This document shows, in pieces, positions 4,826 to 55,462 of a stretch of DNA of 56,834 nt (positions within the stretch are counted from its first letter, which is position 1; every line of letters begins with the position of its first letter). The DNA lies in IMG/VR virus record IMGVR_UViG_3300029708_000018, positions 1 through 56,834 of that record; one strand, given 5' to 3'. This stretch comes from a virus. Below the pieces are notes generated by a model. That model did not search any database. It saw only the letters and a list, made by a program, of their open reading frames with translations, and was not told the origin of the DNA. The position numbers and the translations under genes were made by a program.

Positions 4826-5992
4826 TTAATCCTCGCTTTCTACTTCTTTAAATTCGCCATCAACTAATTTATAGAATATATCTTCTTTGATACGTTCTCC
4901 GTCTACATATTCTGTTTTTACACACTTAGGAATCCATATATAATTACCTTTATTGTCTGTTTCATCAGTTTTAATCCATTCAGCTAACGTTATCCAACTA
5001 CCGATTTTTGCCTTTGCTATTGAATTGCAGCCTGCTGCCATAACCACAGAGTTATTACCTTCTGATGTTATCTGTGCGTAATATCCACTACTGCCTATCT
5101 TTGCGTAATCTCCACTACTGCCTATCTGTGCGTAATCTCCACTACTGCCTATCTGTGCGGAATCTCCACTACTGCCTATCTGTGCGGAATATCCACTACT
5201 GCCTATCTTTGCGGAATCTCCACTACTGCCTATCTGTGCGTAATCTCCACTACTGCCTATCTGTGCGGAATATCCACTACTGCCTATCTGTGCGTAATAT
5301 CCACTACTGCCTATCTTTGTGTAATCTCCACTACTGCCTATCTGTGCGGAATATCCACTACTGCCTATCTGTGCGTAATCTCCACTACTGCCTATCTGTG
5401 CGTAATATCCACTACTGCCTATCTGTGCGGAATATCCACTACTGCCTATCTGTGCGTAATATCCACTACTGCCTATCTGTGCGGAATATCCACTACTGCC
5501 TATCTTTGTGTAATCTCCACTACTGCCTATCTGTGCGGAATCTCCACTACTGCCTATCTGTGCGTAATCTCCACTACTGCCTATCTGTGCGGAATATCCA
5601 CTACTGCCTATCTGTGCGGAATATCCACTACTGATACCAACATCGTCTGCTTTGACTGTCTCAACTTTTGTTTTCTCAATTGTAAAATCTACGCAAGCCT
5701 TAATAAACCCTTTAAGCCCAAGTTTTGCACCAATATGGAGCTTATTTGTAGCTGTTTTATCCTTTCCTTTATAAATATCTCCAATAGCTTCAACATCTGC
5801 AAAATCTGAAATGTTGCCATCTTCATCAATAAGTGGATAATAATTCAACACATCAAATGGATTTTCACAGAAATGCATTACACCCGCTTCACATATTTTG
5901 TTTCCTTTTTCTTCGTAAGTAGTATTTTCTTCGTATTGCTTGCCTTTGCATATCATTCCTCTGTTAAATGCCTTATATCCTTTTATACTCAT
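4826..5992 (-). CDS. Repeat protein: conserved Cys-containing N-terminal domain, then 21 nonapeptide repeats IGSSG[YD][SY]A[QK], then a C-terminal domain.
   Basis: ORF track. The repeats are read in the protein and as a 27-bp DNA unit. The N-terminus is KGYKAFNRGMICKGKQYEE...GVMHFCENPFDVLNYY. Confidence 0.8.
   Translation of the reverse strand: MSIKGYKAFNRGMICKGKQYEENTTYEEKGNKICEAGVMHFCENPFDVLNYYPLIDEDGNISDFADVEAIGDIYKGKDKTATNKLHIGAKLGLKGFIKACVDFTIEKTKVETVKADDVGISSGYSAQIGSSGYSAQIGSSGDYAQIGSSGDSAQIGSSGDYTKIGSSGYSAQIGSSGYYAQIGSSGYSAQIGSSGYYAQIGSSGDYAQIGSSGYSAQIGSSGDYTKIGSSGYYAQIGSSGYSAQIGSSGDYAQIGSSGDSAKIGSSGYSAQIGSSGDSAQIGSSGDYAQIGSSGDYAKIGSSGYYAQITSEGNNSVVMAAGCNSIAKAKIGSWITLAEWIKTDETDNKGNYIWIPKCVKTEYVDGERIKEDIFYKLVDGEFKEVESED
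5071..5637 (-). repeat. Tandem repeat, 21 x 27 bp, in frame within CDS 4826..5992.
   Basis: The unit ctgtgcg[gt]aat[ac]tccactactgcctat is repeated head to tail. Variation is confined to 3-4 nucleotide positions. Confidence 0.95.
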
Positions 5993-51200: not shown

Positions 51201-52169
51201 TCATACTGTATTTTCTTGCTTTATATTCAGATTTTTAAACATAGCGCACATAACATCTACGACAATACTGTTTCCAAATTGCTTATACAACTGCGTATTG
51301 CTGTTTACTGCTGCCATTTTGTCAATATCTTCATCAGATACACCCATCAGCCGTCCACACTCTCTCGGCGTTAGCTTTCTGATACGATATTGCGTGGCAA
51401 TATGGCTATTTGCATATCCGTGTGTGCCAGCTACAAGATTGGCCGATATGCCATTATCGGAAATAACTGTACCGCATTGAGAACCATTGCTTGATATTTG
51501 ACCGACTTTTTCAATAACGGCATTATCTGCATTAAACCCAGTCATATTGCTGCGTTCGTAACCACTCAAAATTGTACTTGTAATGTCATTCTGTTTGCCT
51601 TTAGTGGATATGCCTTGTTTTTCAAGGACCAGGTTATCTTTCTGCACACTCGTCAAGCAATTACTTGTGCCTTGCATATTCACCTCTAATCTCTGCTCTG
51701 TTGGGTTTCCCACAGTTCTATCTGACGGATTATCAGGATTTCTGCCACGCATAGCGACTATGCACATATTGTCTTTGTGTGCACCTATCCCTTTGTAATA
51801 CCGTGATGTTACTGTACTTGCTGTTGGTGTATCGACATCACATATTTGGGCATTATCTAAGCTGTCCAAATGTCCTTCCGGCATTTTATTCAATTTGCAC
51901 GGAATTTGCTCTTCAAGAATTTTCGGCTCTTGATTGCCATCTTGTATTGTGCTCAATGTTGGACTCCCATCATCATAAATTCTGTTGGTACTCTCAAATA
52001 TTGCTTCAAGAGAACCTATTACATTTACATCTGTTATTACTTCAATCACTCCGCTACTTGTTTTATTGGATCTTAGGGTAGGACAAATTCCCTCCCTAAG
52101 TACCTTTTCGCCACCGAATTTTTCACTTTCAAAAAGCACTATTCCGATAGCGTCTGTTAATTTTTCCAT
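51201..52169 (-). CDS. C5-cytosine DNA methyltransferase, C-terminal subunit: several TRD-like segments plus motifs IX and X.
   Basis: RKLTPRECGRLMG (IX), QLYKQFGNSIVVDV (X), and five or six xPT[LV]-type segments. GGAG RBS lies 7 nt upstream of its own ATG. Confidence 0.75.
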   Translation of the reverse strand: MEKLTDAIGIVLFESEKFGGEKVLREGICPTLRSNKTSSGVIEVITDVNVIGSLEAIFESTNRIYDDGSPTLSTIQDGNQEPKILEEQIPCKLNKMPEGHLDSLDNAQICDVDTPTASTVTSRYYKGIGAHKDNMCIVAMRGRNPDNPSDRTVGNPTEQRLEVNMQGTSNCLTSVQKDNLVLEKQGISTKGKQNDITSTILSGYERSNMTGFNADNAVIEKVGQISSNGSQCGTVISDNGISANLVAGTHGYANSHIATQYRIRKLTPRECGRLMGVSDEDIDKMAAVNSNTQLYKQFGNSIVVDVMCAMFKNLNIKQENTV

Positions 52170-53122
52170 TCAATTACTCCATTACTTCCATAATTATCAA
52201 GGCCTTTATAATCTCTTGCCCTAAGAGTTACGGCTACATCAATCTGTTTGTCTGCCGTCTCTCCCATATCCTTTAACAACCAAGTTTCCAACTTGTTGTT
52301 GGTTTGATCTCTCTGTTGTGGCTTATTGATTGTTCCGTCAACGCATGTCTGTCTGTCAAGATTGTGTTGTGGTAAGGTGCCGTTGTCAATAAGCTGTTTT
52401 ATCAGCTTGTCAGCCTTTTCATTGTTGATGTAATACTTTTCATCTACATTATCCTCAAGATAGTCTTTCAACTTCTTTTTGAGTGGTATAGGCTGCGGAA
52501 AATGGTAATTGTACTCACCCAGAAATGAAAACATAAAACATCTTTCACGATTTTGTGCTACACCATAATTTTTAGCATTTAAGTCTTGATAGTAATTTGT
52601 GTAACCCAGGCCTTCAAGGAAGTCTAACCACTTTCTAAAATCAGGCATATTATCTTGACTATGCACCTGTGGCACATTCTCCATGAATAAAATCTGTGGC
52701 AATTCTCCGCTGCTGCCTTTGATTTCTTTCAGTATTCTTTCAACTTCCCATAACAGACCGCTTCTTGTGCCACTGCCCTTAGACATTCCGGCTTGCTTTC
52801 CGGCAACTGATAAATCTGTACAAGGGAATGAGTAAGTAAGTATGTATGTAAATGTATCTGTGTCGCAAATATTCAAATCTTCTGCATGGATCTTGGTTAT
52901 ATCCATTGTAGGAAAATCCGTACCATGCACTGCGTTATAGCTTGTAATAGCGTACTTATCAAACTCCACAACTCTGTAATGTTCAAATTTAGCACCTATT
53001 CTCTTTAGCGCCATTGCCTGACTTCCGTAGCCGGCAAATAGTTCTATCAATCGTATAGGCTTTGTTATGTTGATCGGTTCTCTTGTGAAGTCAAATAAAG
53101 ACATTTGTATTAAATCTTCCAT
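52157..53122 (-). CDS. C5-cytosine DNA methyltransferase, N-terminal catalytic subunit (motifs I-VIII plus the first TRD).
   Basis: ELFAGYGS (I), SFPCTDLS (IV), ENV (VI), QNRERCF (VIII), VTLRARDYKG. Confidence 0.85.
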   Translation of the reverse strand: MEDLIQMSLFDFTREPINITKPIRLIELFAGYGSQAMALKRIGAKFEHYRVVEFDKYAITSYNAVHGTDFPTMDITKIHAEDLNICDTDTFTYILTYSFPCTDLSVAGKQAGMSKGSGTRSGLLWEVERILKEIKGSSGELPQILFMENVPQVHSQDNMPDFRKWLDFLEGLGYTNYYQDLNAKNYGVAQNRERCFMFSFLGEYNYHFPQPIPLKKKLKDYLEDNVDEKYYINNEKADKLIKQLIDNGTLPQHNLDRQTCVDGTINKPQQRDQTNNKLETWLLKDMGETADKQIDVAVTLRARDYKGLDNYGSNGVIEWKN

Positions 53123-53160: not shown

Positions 53161-54078
53161 TTATACAAGGCTCTCCGATAAAAAATCTTCAATGCTCATT
53201 TGTCCTACTGGACAATTCATTTTGTCAGCATTTGCGGCAATTTCAAGGTTTGCAACTGCCTGTTTGTAATAGCTTTCCTTAAGTTCAAATCCTATGCCGC
53301 GTCTGCCGAGTGTAACAGCCACATATGGACTGCTGCCGATTCCGGCAAATGGGTCTAATACAATGTCGTTCGGATTCGTCCACAGTTCGATGCATCTCTG
53401 AATCACTTCGAGCTGCAAAGGACAAATGTGACGCTCGTCCTTTTCTGCTCTTGCCGATTTTTTCTGCAATGTGTCAGACTGTCTTATATCCATCCATACT
53501 GGACTTGCGTAATTCCGCCATACATCAACCGGAAATGTTTCATGCGTATGCGACACTCTTTCCGGATTTTCTCCCGGCTTGCGCATTGTAACGATATAAT
53601 CCGGTATTCCCTGTCGATTCATTGTACTGTCTTTTCTAATCTGCTTATGTAATAACCCTAAAGCCTTTGTCCTATGCATCTCAGTAACCGGATTTTTCCA
53701 AATCGTAACCTTGCTGTGATAAATAAATCCGCAATCTTCAAAAATCTGTCTGCAAAGTGCCGGAAAGTCTTTAAGACCAATAACTCCGTCTCTTTCTTTC
53801 ATGAGTGGCAAATCCATGCAATGAAATGAAAGTAATCTGCCCGGCATTGTAACTCTGTAAAGTTCCTTTGCAAGAAATTTGAAATGATCGTAAAACTCTG
53901 TATCTCCCTTGCAGTTCCCCATGTCCCTGTCGCTGTTAGAATATGTATACAGGCTTGCAAATGGCGGACTGAAAATTGTGTAGTGAATGCTGTTATCTGG
54001 GATATTTTTTATAAGTTCCACACTGTCTCCGTTATAAATTGCATACTGTTTTTCAATTGTCTGCGCTAAAACGTCCAT
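53161..54078 (-). CDS. Beta-class N4-cytosine/N6-adenine DNA methyltransferase. The SPPF motif suggests N4-cytosine.
   Basis: IFSPPFASLY (motif IV) lies N-terminal to DPFAGIGSS (motif I). AAGGAG RBS precedes the internal ATG at 54078. Confidence 0.8.
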   Translation of the reverse strand: MDVLAQTIEKQYAIYNGDSVELIKNIPDNSIHYTIFSPPFASLYTYSNSDRDMGNCKGDTEFYDHFKFLAKELYRVTMPGRLLSFHCMDLPLMKERDGVIGLKDFPALCRQIFEDCGFIYHSKVTIWKNPVTEMHRTKALGLLHKQIRKDSTMNRQGIPDYIVTMRKPGENPERVSHTHETFPVDVWRNYASPVWMDIRQSDTLQKKSARAEKDERHICPLQLEVIQRCIELWTNPNDIVLDPFAGIGSSPYVAVTLGRRGIGFELKESYYKQAVANLEIAANADKMNCPVGQMSIEDFLSESLV

Positions 54079-54094
54079 TTTTTCTATCTCCTTT

Positions 54095-55462
54095 TTACGC
54101 TGTAAATTCTTCCCATTCCGGCAAAGCCATTGTTTCATGTGGCTCATATGGGGTGCTGATTCTGCAAGTGTTTTTCAGTTCTTTCTTTGTAATCTCTTTT
54201 GTCAGTTCTGTCATTTCTGACTGCATTTTCTGAAAATCTTTCTGCTTTCTCTCAATGTTTTCTTTGACACACCCCTCTTTCGAAGAAATGATTATGTACA
54301 CATTTACTGCTTCCGTCTGACCAAATCTCCAACATCTTCTCAACGCTTGGTAGTACTGCTCGTAGCTGTCTGAAAGTCCGGTAAAAATCATATTGTGGCA
54401 ATTCTGCCAGTTCATGCCAAATCCGGCAATCTTAGGTTTTGTGACTAAGCATTTAATATCCCTATTGCTAAAATTCAACATTGAGCTTGACTTGTGCGTA
54501 TCTTTGTCGCTGCCTTGCACTTCCACAGATTCATTAATCAGTTCATGTAATTTGTGGCTTTCGTCATTCAGATCACACCATACAAGCCACTGCTCATCTG
54601 AACTGTTTACCAATTCTGCCGCTACTGTGCATCTGTCAATTAAGCTATCTTTTCTAGCCTGTCTGCGCTCTGTCAGCGTGAGTTTTTCGGTCACAGGTTC
54701 TTTTCCGTCAACAACAATTTCTTTAATGTTAATTGGCGGCAAGTTATACCCGGAAACGTCATATCCAATATTGTTTGGATTGTCCACGAACACACTGAAT
54801 GTCGCTAACCACTGCCAAAATACATCCTCTGCGTGTCCTTTTAATCTCCATTTTGATGTTTCTCCGCCATCATGAACAAAGAACATGGAAAGCATTTCTG
54901 CCCTTGTCATAACTCCACAAAATTCTGAATGATTTCCCAATTCCATGTAGTCATTCGGTGCTGGAGTTGCGGTACAAGCCAATTTGTACGGCACATCATG
55001 GAAATTCTGAATAATCGCTGTCCTCACCTTGCCGGAATAAGATTTTAAGATACTACTTTCATCAAGTACGATTCCGGTAAATTCATTTGCGATAAATCTA
55101 TCCAGTTTTTCGTAATTCGTGATGTTAATTCCGTCAATACATTGTGATTGTTCCTCAACGACATTTGCCACATATCCAAACTTTTCCGCTTCTCGTTTCG
55201 TTTGATCTGCAACTGCCAATGGTGCAAGGATAAGCACCTTGCCGCCTGTATGCACGTGAACTTGATGCGCCCACGATAACTGCATAGGTGTTTTTCCAAG
55301 TCCACAATCAGCAAAGATACAAGCCTTTCCTTTCTTTAACGCCCAACGAACAATGTCTTTCTGAAAATCGTATAACATTGGGTTTAATTCGGATTTATCA
55401 ATGTCGAATCCACTGCTTTCAAGTACGAATCTTTTATTTGCTAAAAATTCGTTATAATCCAT
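54095..55462 (-). CDS. SNF2/DEAD-like superfamily-2 helicase.
   Basis: ADCGLGKT (Walker A), VLDESSILK (DExx), and a C-terminal helicase domain. Confidence 0.8.
   Translation of the reverse strand: MDYNEFLANKRFVLESSGFDIDKSELNPMLYDFQKDIVRWALKKGKACIFADCGLGKTPMQLSWAHQVHVHTGGKVLILAPLAVADQTKREAEKFGYVANVVEEQSQCIDGINITNYEKLDRFIANEFTGIVLDESSILKSYSGKVRTAIIQNFHDVPYKLACTATPAPNDYMELGNHSEFCGVMTRAEMLSMFFVHDGGETSKWRLKGHAEDVFWQWLATFSVFVDNPNNIGYDVSGYNLPPINIKEIVVDGKEPVTEKLTLTERRQARKDSLIDRCTVAAELVNSSDEQWLVWCDLNDESHKLHELINESVEVQGSDKDTHKSSSMLNFSNRDIKCLVTKPKIAGFGMNWQNCHNMIFTGLSDSYEQYYQALRRCWRFGQTEAVNVYIIISSKEGCVKENIERKQKDFQKMQSEMTELTKEITKKELKNTCRISTPYEPHETMALPEWEEFTA

Follow-up and report, generated by a model that had tools for sequence, protein, structure and literature searches.

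Within a 56,834-nt viral record (IMG/VR IMGVR_UViG_3300029708_000018; hereafter the window, meaning the whole of this DNA), we examined two overlapping open reading frames (ORFs) that together encode a C5-cytosine methyltransferase (C5-MTase) with a long series of modules resembling target-recognition domains (TRDs). All methylase coordinates are on the minus strand (Table 1). The upstream frame, ORF1, matched positions 2-251 of the 324 in profile PF00145 (E 3e-49) and the downstream frame, ORF2, matched positions 192-322 (E 5e-11); adjacent, complementary half-matches of such strength are not a product of chance. TIGR00675 scored 145.6 bits against ORF1, above its cut-off of 100.65, and was divided between the ORFs in the same way. 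Judged by FxGxG (motif I), Pro-Cys (IV), ENV (VI), QxRxR (VIII), RxxxPxE (IX) and GNS (X), the ten motifs that define the superfamily in PF00145 and TIGR00675 occurred in the order I-X, distributed over the two ORFs. An earlier note on this DNA had described a C5-MTase divided inside its variable region at these positions, and the complementary half-matches bear this out. Every peptide it quoted was also found (VAVTLRARDYKG, CPTLRS, SPTLST, ASTVTSRYYKG, NCLTSV, TSTILSGY, ANLVAGT, RKLTPRECGRLMG and QLYKQFGNSIVVDV).

The closest solved structures were M.MpeI (PDB 4dkj, 8c56) and M.HhaI. We modeled the joined 640-aa chain with AlphaFold2 (AF2) from a 63-sequence alignment, and residues 1-250 and 577-640 formed one confident domain (predicted local distance difference test, pLDDT, ~90), with the ORF2 residues 577-640, the motif X region in joined numbering, packed onto residues 1-250 of ORF1. 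Motifs VIII and IX are separated by ~385 aa in the window, spanning two chains; the interval is ~90 aa in M.MpeI and M.HhaI. The combined length of 643 aa given earlier is correct as the sum of both ORFs, but the hypothetical fusion would have 640 aa, and the description of that length as well above the multispecific enzymes was overstated: single-chain relatives reach 600 aa, so 640 aa lies at the top of the family range and is no outlier.

TRD-like modules of the variable region

Between the catalytic motifs and motif IX we recognized seven TRD-like modules, the highest count among the relatives examined. TRD1b (VAVTLRARDYKG) lies on ORF1, followed on ORF2 by T2 (CPTLRS), T3 (SPTLST), T4 (TVTSRYYKG), T5 (NCLTSVQKDN), T6 (TSTILSGY) and T8 (NLVAGTHGY), and then motif IX. 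The seven tandem segments proposed in the earlier note thus hold as a count of sequence patterns (1b, T2, T3, T4, T5, T6 and T8), not as seven specificities. All modules carry a T-L/V/I-type core and then a hydrophobic-hydrophobic-Glu end, like the TRDs of SPbeta-type enzymes. A 510-aa SPbeta-type phage enzyme showed ~30% identity in the conserved parts and three collinear modules (for example, EVSHTLSASDWRGLNRNQKQNAVVE with DVAVTLRARDYKGLDNYGSNGVIE), and T8 aligned with M.MpeI as NGISANLVAGT...RKLTPREC (window) versus NGIGPTLTASG...RYLTPLEC (M.MpeI).

Modules were gained and lost as units. The homologue set comprised the top 120 proteins, of which 108 were single-chain, seven represented the N-terminal ORF only and five were without the N-terminal motif. 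The single-chain homologues ranged from 369 to 600 aa and showed more than 25 architectures, in which alignment revealed modules present or absent as whole blocks, with 1a, T3, T4, T5, T7 and T8 each directly abutting motif IX in some protein. As a side observation, a third downstream module, MEKRLGNIFGFTGGNYAGNVYDQN (L098:3969-4050), follows a ATTGAATGGAAAAA junction and is related to the in-frame ...VENKAKRLGNLYGE... of two single-chain relatives, P0013 and P0014.

Junction between the two reading frames

The ORFs overlap by 13 nt (ATGGAAAAATTAA). Upstream of the overlap lies a GGAG (52177-52180), separated by a 7-nt spacer from the ORF2 ATG (52167-52169), which is followed by a run of five A residues (A5, 52161-52165) and the ORF1 stop TAA (52157-52159). 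The GGAG and the overlap are thus present as had been claimed, while the A5 run, earlier placed at 52160-52164, was off by one base. A TGA directly 5' of the ATG, in the frame of ORF2, makes this ATG its first possible start. A single added A (A6) would join both frames into the 640-aa protein.

Beyond the junction, the predicted RNA hairpin at 52109-52152 was retained in 13 alleles via wobble changes only, and a covariation test across these 13 alleles found 0 compensatory pairs, giving no evidence of selected RNA structure beyond wobble-tolerant retention. It is one of two predicted hairpins just inside ORF2 on the minus strand (window 52109-52152 and 52072-52100). In the second hairpin, CTTAGGG at the 5' edge of a former G tract (described below) pairs with CCCTAAG in the CPTL codons, and the same CTTAGGG/CCCTAAG inverted repeat also brackets the G7-9 tract of relatives.

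Conservation of the split

We found the exact ORF2 on seven contigs, among them contigs of an SPAdes assembly from ENA and of an assembly from JGI, and the two loci fetched were 100% identical to the window across 6969 nt, junction included. Five variants, each of 322 aa, made up the 90%-identity cluster of ORF2. A junction census covered 80 IMG/VR loci related to ORF1 (L015-L094). The sequence TGGAAAAAYTAA occupied the junction in 45 of them, and its T/C difference leaves the residue unchanged in either frame (Asn from AAT or AAC, Leu from TTA or CTA). Another ~14 loci shared the ATTGAATGGAA (TGGAA) junction followed by other downstream modules, and in ~11 of these the downstream frame begins with MEVIGS, MEVLGS or MEILGS. 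The ATGGAAGTAATAGGT junction codes MEVIGS, with ORF1 there ending in WK* at a double stop (TAATAG), and ATGGAAGTATTAGGA is another junction variant. Where TRD1b is directly continuous with the following module, the junction consists of ATTGAA followed by GTAATGGCAGATGT, and the 5-nt TGGAA is missing. Overall, ~60 related loci keep the -1 offset, the ATG and the stop; the table of landmark peptides across loci repeatedly shows the -1 step between TRD1b and the junction, and a single ORF with both N- and C-terminal motifs occurred in only three of the 80. In a diverged locus (L111, 73% identity in the first ORF2 module), the junction ATTGAATGCAAAAAATCAAACAGGCAATAG has the same layout in different nucleotides: ORF1 ends ...GVIECKKSNRQ*, and the ORF2 ATG stands at the same position in the -1 frame with a TGA just before it.

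With the hypothetical fused junction and the first ORF2 module as query, a word-index search across 5.8 billion proteins found no read-through protein; it returned 33 short ORFs of 35-105 aa, almost all of which start with MEKLTDAIG. Exhaustively searching 1.84 billion representatives using HMMER with the first 44 residues of ORF2 yielded 16 hits, and every significant hit to this module began at target residues 1-7, never internally. Diverged versions of the module, at 73% and 61% identity, begin at the same residue (MQKIKQAIG... and MSKVKYAIG...).

ORF2 is under purifying selection. Between the ORF2 of the window and six intact alleles with the same junction type, the ratio of nonsynonymous to synonymous substitution rates (dN/dS, Nei-Gojobori) was 0.14-0.30 at synonymous divergence (dS) of 0.35-0.59, and 0.11-0.30 for the TRD-like modules alone, which argues against a pseudogene. 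We used this measure in place of a codon-position count over all junction sequences, which two outliers had spoiled. Read by eye, differences in the first 24 codons of ORF2 among clean type-A alleles were mostly third-position or synonymous. Taken on the sequence evidence, the split is a stable inherited feature, neither lesion nor error.

Repeats and out-of-frame cassettes in related loci

Most relatives carry three hypervariable simple-sequence repeats at fixed positions inside the gene (loci L003-L094; for example, L003:2760-3250 and L019). The first is (GACA)n, with n from 4 to more than 20 (4-17 inside contigs), replaced in some lineages by (AGAGC)n; the second and third are G6-9 tracts, one just before CPTL and one just before CSPTL. 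Alleles that share at least 99.7% identity across 1050 nt of the gene flanking the repeats nevertheless have tracts of different length (n = 16 versus 15 in L019 and L077, 14 versus 17 in L041 and L042, and one G between L017 and L018). Contigs also break at these sites: L072, L074, L076, L079, L083, L085, L093 and L095 end in (GACA)n or (AGAGC)n, L055 and L088 end inside a G tract, and L005-L008 begin within these repeats. Some repeat-terminated contigs are 55-59 kb long, and the breaks are consistent with arrays too long for the assembly k-mer or with tracts whose length varies within a sample.

The first repeat determines which module the catalytic domain reads into. In 79 of 81 loci, TRD1b comes after TRD1a (ANCIKARYDCGIS) and is offset from it by +1. 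Across TRD1a, 52 of 53 unique alleles keep the +1 frame open, versus 38% of codon shuffles, the alleles being related and not independent. The (GACA)n repeat is stop-free in every frame, and n mod 3 predicts the reading state: the catalytic domain reads into TRD1b when n mod 3 is 1 (34/34 loci) and into TRD1a when it is 2 (13 loci, with four exceptions from one sublineage), and meets an immediate stop (DLR*) when it is 0 (11 loci). The counts of these states, 45:14:11 (TRD1b to TRD1a to neither), are not readable as selection, since a query with TRD1b in frame biased the ranking. The G tracts were in frame in 12 cases and out of frame in 19, close to one third in frame. In either productive state the N-terminal ORF ends within or just past the TRD1b cassette, so the remainder must start at the junction ATG, and the split therefore follows from a TRD1b cassette inserted in a different frame. 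In relatives without TRD1b (for example, P0034), TRD1a continues directly into the next module.

The window is 86-91% identical at the DNA level to its closest relatives and has lost all three repeats, each site being in frame, and only the -1 junction remains. At the first site, a 40-nt deletion relative to the relatives removes the rest of TRD1a and moves reading into the TRD1b frame. Repeat tracts of the kind that drive phase variation were found in relatives; the window holds only (GACA)3 and interrupted G runs, and its allele looks like a fixed, locked-ON version in two ORFs. The earlier note had overlooked the repeats of the family, the alternative cassettes out of frame and the repeat-free state of the window allele. 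A palindrome, CCAACAACAAGTTGG (window 52288-52302), terminator-like on the plus strand, was also observed exactly at the window-specific sequence replacing the deleted TRD1a segment, and may therefore mark a deletion or recombination event.

Table 1. Positions of the two methylase frames and their component features in the window
Feature	Position	Strand	Description
ORF1, N-terminal subunit	52157-53122	minus	321 aa; motifs I-VIII, linker, TRD1a stub, TRD1b
Motif I, LFAGYGS	53021-53041	minus	S-adenosylmethionine (AdoMet) binding; aligned to M.MpeI, M.HhaI
Motif IV, FPCTDLS	52808-52828	minus	catalytic Pro-Cys; aligned to M.MpeI, M.HhaI
Motif VI, ENVPQV	52664-52681	minus	aligned to M.MpeI, M.HhaI
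Motif VIII, QNRERCF	52535-52555	minus	aligned to M.MpeI, M.HhaI
(GACA)3, codes DRQT	52346-52357	minus	short in-frame relic of the (GACA)4 to >20 seen in the family; joined in frame to TRD1a start
TRD1a stub, CVDGTINKPQQR	52310-52345	minus	DNA alignment with relatives
TRD1b cassette, ETWLLKDMGETADKQIDVAVTLRARDYKGLDNYGSNGVIE	52169-52288	minus	resembles SPbeta-type segment EVSHTLSASDWRGLNRNQKQNAVVE
Junction cassette, GGAGTAATTGAATGGAAAAATTAA	52157-52180	minus	GGAG, 7 nt, ORF2 ATG, ORF1 stop 10 nt on
ORF2, C-terminal subunit	51201-52169	minus	322 aa; six TRD-like modules, then motifs IX and X
Module T2 (jA), MEKLTDAIG...CPTLRSNKTSSGVIE	52041-52169	minus	known only from protein N-termini
Predicted RNA hairpin, 10 + 6 bp	52109-52152	minus	begins 7 nt past A5-U; z -4.05 for 106-nt stretch
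First G-tract site	52089-52100	minus	relatives AGGGGGGG(G); window interrupted AGGGAGGGA, in frame
Module T3, VITDVNVIGSLEAIFESTNRIYDDGSPTLSTIQDGNQEPKILEE	51909-52040	minus	block alignment with relatives
Second G-tract site	51963-51974	minus	replaced by GATGATGGGAGT with 6-nt deletion, in frame
Module T4, ...TPTASTVTSRYYKGIGAHKDNMC	51762-51908	minus	adjoins motif IX directly in P0026
Module T5, IVAMRGRNPDNPSDR...SNCLTSVQKDNLVLEKQ	51615-51761	minus	in nearly all relatives
Module T6, GISTKGKQNDITSTILSGYERSNMTGFNADNAVIEK	51507-51614	minus	rare; also in P0001
Module T8, VGQISSNGSQCGTVISDNGISANLVAGTHGYANSHIATQ	51390-51506	minus	canonical TRD core beside motif IX; aligns to M.MpeI VYNINGIGPTLTASGANSRIKIETQ
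Motif IX, RKLTPRECGRLMG	51342-51380	minus	aligned to M.MpeI, M.HhaI
Motif X, QLYKQFGNSIVVDV	51252-51293	minus	includes QFGNSIVV; aligned to M.MpeI, M.HhaI; pLDDT ~90

Genomic context

The window represents a temperate siphovirus-like gut phage with an integrase, a Tn916-type excisionase (Xis), an SPP1-type portal and capsid protein E. Its methylase lies in a replication/modification module with an SNF2-type helicase, an N6/N4 methyltransferase, a MazG-like protein and a protein carrying Phg_2220_C, a domain of the kind found in phage replication modules. No restriction gene adjoining the methylase was seen among the neighbors scanned. Relatives in genome collections were mainly metagenome-assembled genomes (MAGs) of Lachnospiraceae (Roseburia, Eubacterium and Hungatella), and a contig scan returned MAGs only.

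Several features of these surroundings were recorded in passing. The second methyltransferase (PF01555, N6/N4 class; 53161-54147, minus strand) sits just upstream of the C5 enzyme; the longest ORF for it, starting at 54147, overlaps the 3' end of the SNF2/DEAD-type helicase (54095-55462) by 53 nt, and its start varies between gene callers, giving 305 or 325 aa. In L003-L008 (P0121-type), the split methylase sits beside a Tn916-type excisionase and integrase, that is, at a prophage end, unlike the replication module of the window. In L111, the gene directly downstream of the C-terminal methylase subunit (L111:706-1431) has weak matches to Lactamase_B and to Anti-Pycsar Apyc1, which suggests a putative counter-defence gene cluster. 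Elsewhere in the window, a 27-nt tandem repeat (5069-5633; 20.9 copies, 93% matches) lies inside ORF 4826-5992 (minus) and codes 21 nonapeptides, GSSG[YD][YS]AQI, in a 388-aa protein with an N-terminal DUF7666 and a weak collagen-repeat match.

Proposed mechanism and alternatives

The best explanation, which we hold with moderate confidence, is a working phage C5-MTase made as two polypeptides, joining a two-subunit arrangement like that of M.AquI to a multi-TRD variable region like that of Bacillus phage enzymes. ORF1 would supply the AdoMet-binding, catalytic large domain (motifs I-VIII) and one TRD-like module. ORF2 would be translated separately from its own ATG within the end of ORF1 and is probably coupled to it via the overlap; we propose coupling because a GGAG 7 nt upstream and an ORF1 stop 10 nt past the ATG form a layout typical of it. 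The second chain would add six TRD-like modules and motifs IX-X, completing the catalytic fold, and the two chains may associate as in M.AquI or as the fragments of split M.HhaI, M.BspRI, M.BsuRI and M.SssI do. The string of cassettes probably allows methylation of more than one target sequence, which may pre-protect the phage DNA from restriction enzymes of Lachnospiraceae hosts. The split would have originated when the TRD1b cassette, at +1 frame versus its neighbors, was inserted between TRD1a and the remaining variable region.

Several observations weigh against this two-chain enzyme. The junction ATG is lost in three loci (ACG, ACA and ATT), and a single ancestral event that then spread through recombination could account for some of the junction's conservation. 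Since the GGAG is also coding sequence for the conserved Gly-Val of ...NGVIE, it could be there without being selected for ribosome binding. In many relatives the gene is broken up into three to four pieces, with a single chain in just three of the 80 IMG/VR loci, so the family tolerates non-functional states. AF2 gave pLDDT <30 over most of residues 254-576, leaving the fold of the modules unsupported, and inactive pseudo-TRDs are reportedly described for Bacillus phage enzymes in papers from the Trautner laboratory, so the module count may exceed the specificity count. Some of these points would suit a decaying pseudogene, in which the -1 junction is an old lesion carried by recombination and the phage has no active methyltransferase: most related loci are fragmented into two to four ORFs, three have no junction ATG, intact single-chain relatives exist, and the in-frame fraction of the G tracts is near one third. 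We nevertheless judge decay unlikely, given an ORF2 open over 322 codons with dN/dS of 0.14-0.30 at dS up to 0.59, a start position conserved down to 61-73% identity and a first module never found fused in the 1.84 billion representatives. The open +1 frame across TRD1a also counts against decay, as do the three former repeat sites of the window, all in frame, for which chance would be ~1/27 under neutrality.

Weightier, although still rather doubtful, is the alternative that the split is real and the enzyme has just one or two specificities, most TRD-like segments serving as linkers or as structural elements of the small domain, or being inactive pseudo-TRDs like those reported for Bacillus phage enzymes. 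T5 (RGR...NCLTSVQKDN) is nearly universal and may therefore be structural; it is the sole part of the variable region to reach a pLDDT of ~45-70, AF2 yielded no confident independent module folds, and T8 alone aligns to a solved TRD core. The gain and loss of modules as units, the ability of six different ones to abut motif IX, their shared core and end of SPbeta type, and the purifying selection acting on them all favor working TRDs instead. Programmed -1 frameshifting at the A-run, yielding the 640-aa fusion instead of or besides separate ORF2 initiation, would leave a trans-frame peptide ...GVIEWKKLTDAIG or ...GVIEWKNLTDAIG; we consider it quite improbable. The layout is similar to the E. 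coli dnaX signal, with a Shine-Dalgarno-like GGAG 11 nt upstream of the A-run, a stable hairpin 7 nt after it (z -4.05) kept in 13 alleles, and an A6 at this position in L020 and L111, but the heptamer G_AAA_AAU is non-canonical by the dnaX-type pattern (X_XXY_YYZ plus downstream structure), because slippage there would require the P-site tRNA to re-pair on GAA, and the hairpin has no compensatory changes. Moreover, ~14 loci with the same -1 junction (type B) read TGGAAGTAATAG, TGGAAGTATTAG or similar, with no slippery run, and what the loci share, even in diverged lineages, is the ATG, the preceding stop and the conserved N-terminal peptide. Finally, one additional A would fuse the frames, and the true gene might be a single ORF disguised by an error made in sequencing or assembling the A5 homopolymer. 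The earlier note had raised this concern, and comparative evidence effectively excludes a read error: the independent ENA and JGI assemblies agree at the junction, the same offset recurs in ~60 loci, including junctions without an A-run, and no fused protein was found in the databases searched (5.8 billion proteins and 1.84 billion representatives), making this the most far-fetched of the explanations considered.

For the gene family as a whole, we tentatively propose a contingency locus, carried by phages, through which methylation specificity would vary in a combinatorial way, a possibility in which we place less confidence than in the two-chain enzyme itself. The (GACA)n repeat would pick TRD1a, TRD1b or a stop, and the two G6-9 tracts would control access to additional TRDs on the C-terminal subunit, whose translation would start separately, so that populations might hedge between escape from classical restriction and avoidance of methylation-dependent restriction; the window would then carry a locked-ON allele of maximal repertoire.

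If active with several specificities, the enzyme would be a natural heterodimeric multi-TRD C5-MTase, offering a system for asking what number of TRDs one catalytic core can serve and a natural precedent for split methyltransferases engineered for targeted methylation. If the proposed switching is real, temperate phages of abundant gut Lachnospiraceae may vary their methylated sequences via repeat-driven frame changes, and phages and C5-methylation specificity would join the phase-variation repertoire, with a bearing on phage host range and on epigenomic signals in gut metagenomes. In practical terms, gene callers cut these loci into two to four pieces labeled "hypothetical"; 324 N-terminal fragments fall into the 90%-identity cluster of ORF1 alone.

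Comparison with known systems

Natural two-chain C5-MTases, multi-TRD phage enzymes and repeat-driven phase-variable methyltransferases are known separately. We found no literature report of a split multi-TRD enzyme, of out-of-frame alternative TRD cassettes or of repeat-driven switching of a phage C5-MTase, most subscription journals being outside the coverage. The 1.9-kb locus had no megablast match among 50,697 deposited phage genomes, and tblastn against phage genomes returned distant methyltransferases only (at most 64% identity in short partial matches; <30% for matches spanning most of ORF2), the two-ORF layout being absent from all of them.

M.EcoHK31I is, besides M.AquI of Agmenellum quadruplicatum, another natural two-subunit C5-MTase. 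In M.AquI, the large subunit holds motifs I-VIII together with a portion of the variable region, and the small subunit holds the distal variable region and motifs IX-X; fragments of split C5-MTases complement one another, with cuts in the proximal variable region best tolerated (PMC3404938). The analogy with M.AquI drawn in the earlier note is apt, as the window chains divide motifs and variable region in this way, with the break within the variable region and the genes adjacent on the same strand. The likeness is one of layout, with differences: in the window the C-terminal chain equals the N-terminal one in length and contains about six TRD-like modules, and the enzyme is phage-borne and split at a cassette boundary made by an out-of-frame TRD insertion. 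NCBIfam NF045953, for the N-terminal subunit, scored 25.3 bits against a cut-off of 93, so the window enzyme is not a member.

The variable region resembles that of the Bacillus phage enzymes (M.SPRI, M.Phi3TI, M.Rho11sI, M.H2I, the SPbeta type and M.phiBssHII), which are likewise phage-encoded, with an enlarged variable region of tandem T-L-type modules. Those enzymes are single polypeptides with two to three active TRDs, whereas the window encodes two polypeptides with about seven modules, belongs to phages of a Lachnospiraceae host clade and shares ~30% identity with the SPbeta type in conserved parts. The principle of tandem TRDs in multispecific C5-MTases is established (PMC8936443); the intragenic repeats and frame-offset cassettes of the window's relatives were not found described for the Bacillus enzymes. 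Similarity to M.MpeI and M.HhaI extends over the catalytic motifs, and the last module and motif IX align with the TRD core of M.MpeI.

The relatives also resemble the phasevarions of Type III mod and Type I hsdS/hsdM systems, in that tetranucleotide and homopolymer tracts in the coding region shift the frame. According to reviews, those are chromosomal N6-adenine enzymes that switch ON and OFF; here the enzyme is a phage C5-MTase, without the repeat in the window allele, and in its relatives the tetranucleotide repeat selects one of two TRD cassettes or neither.

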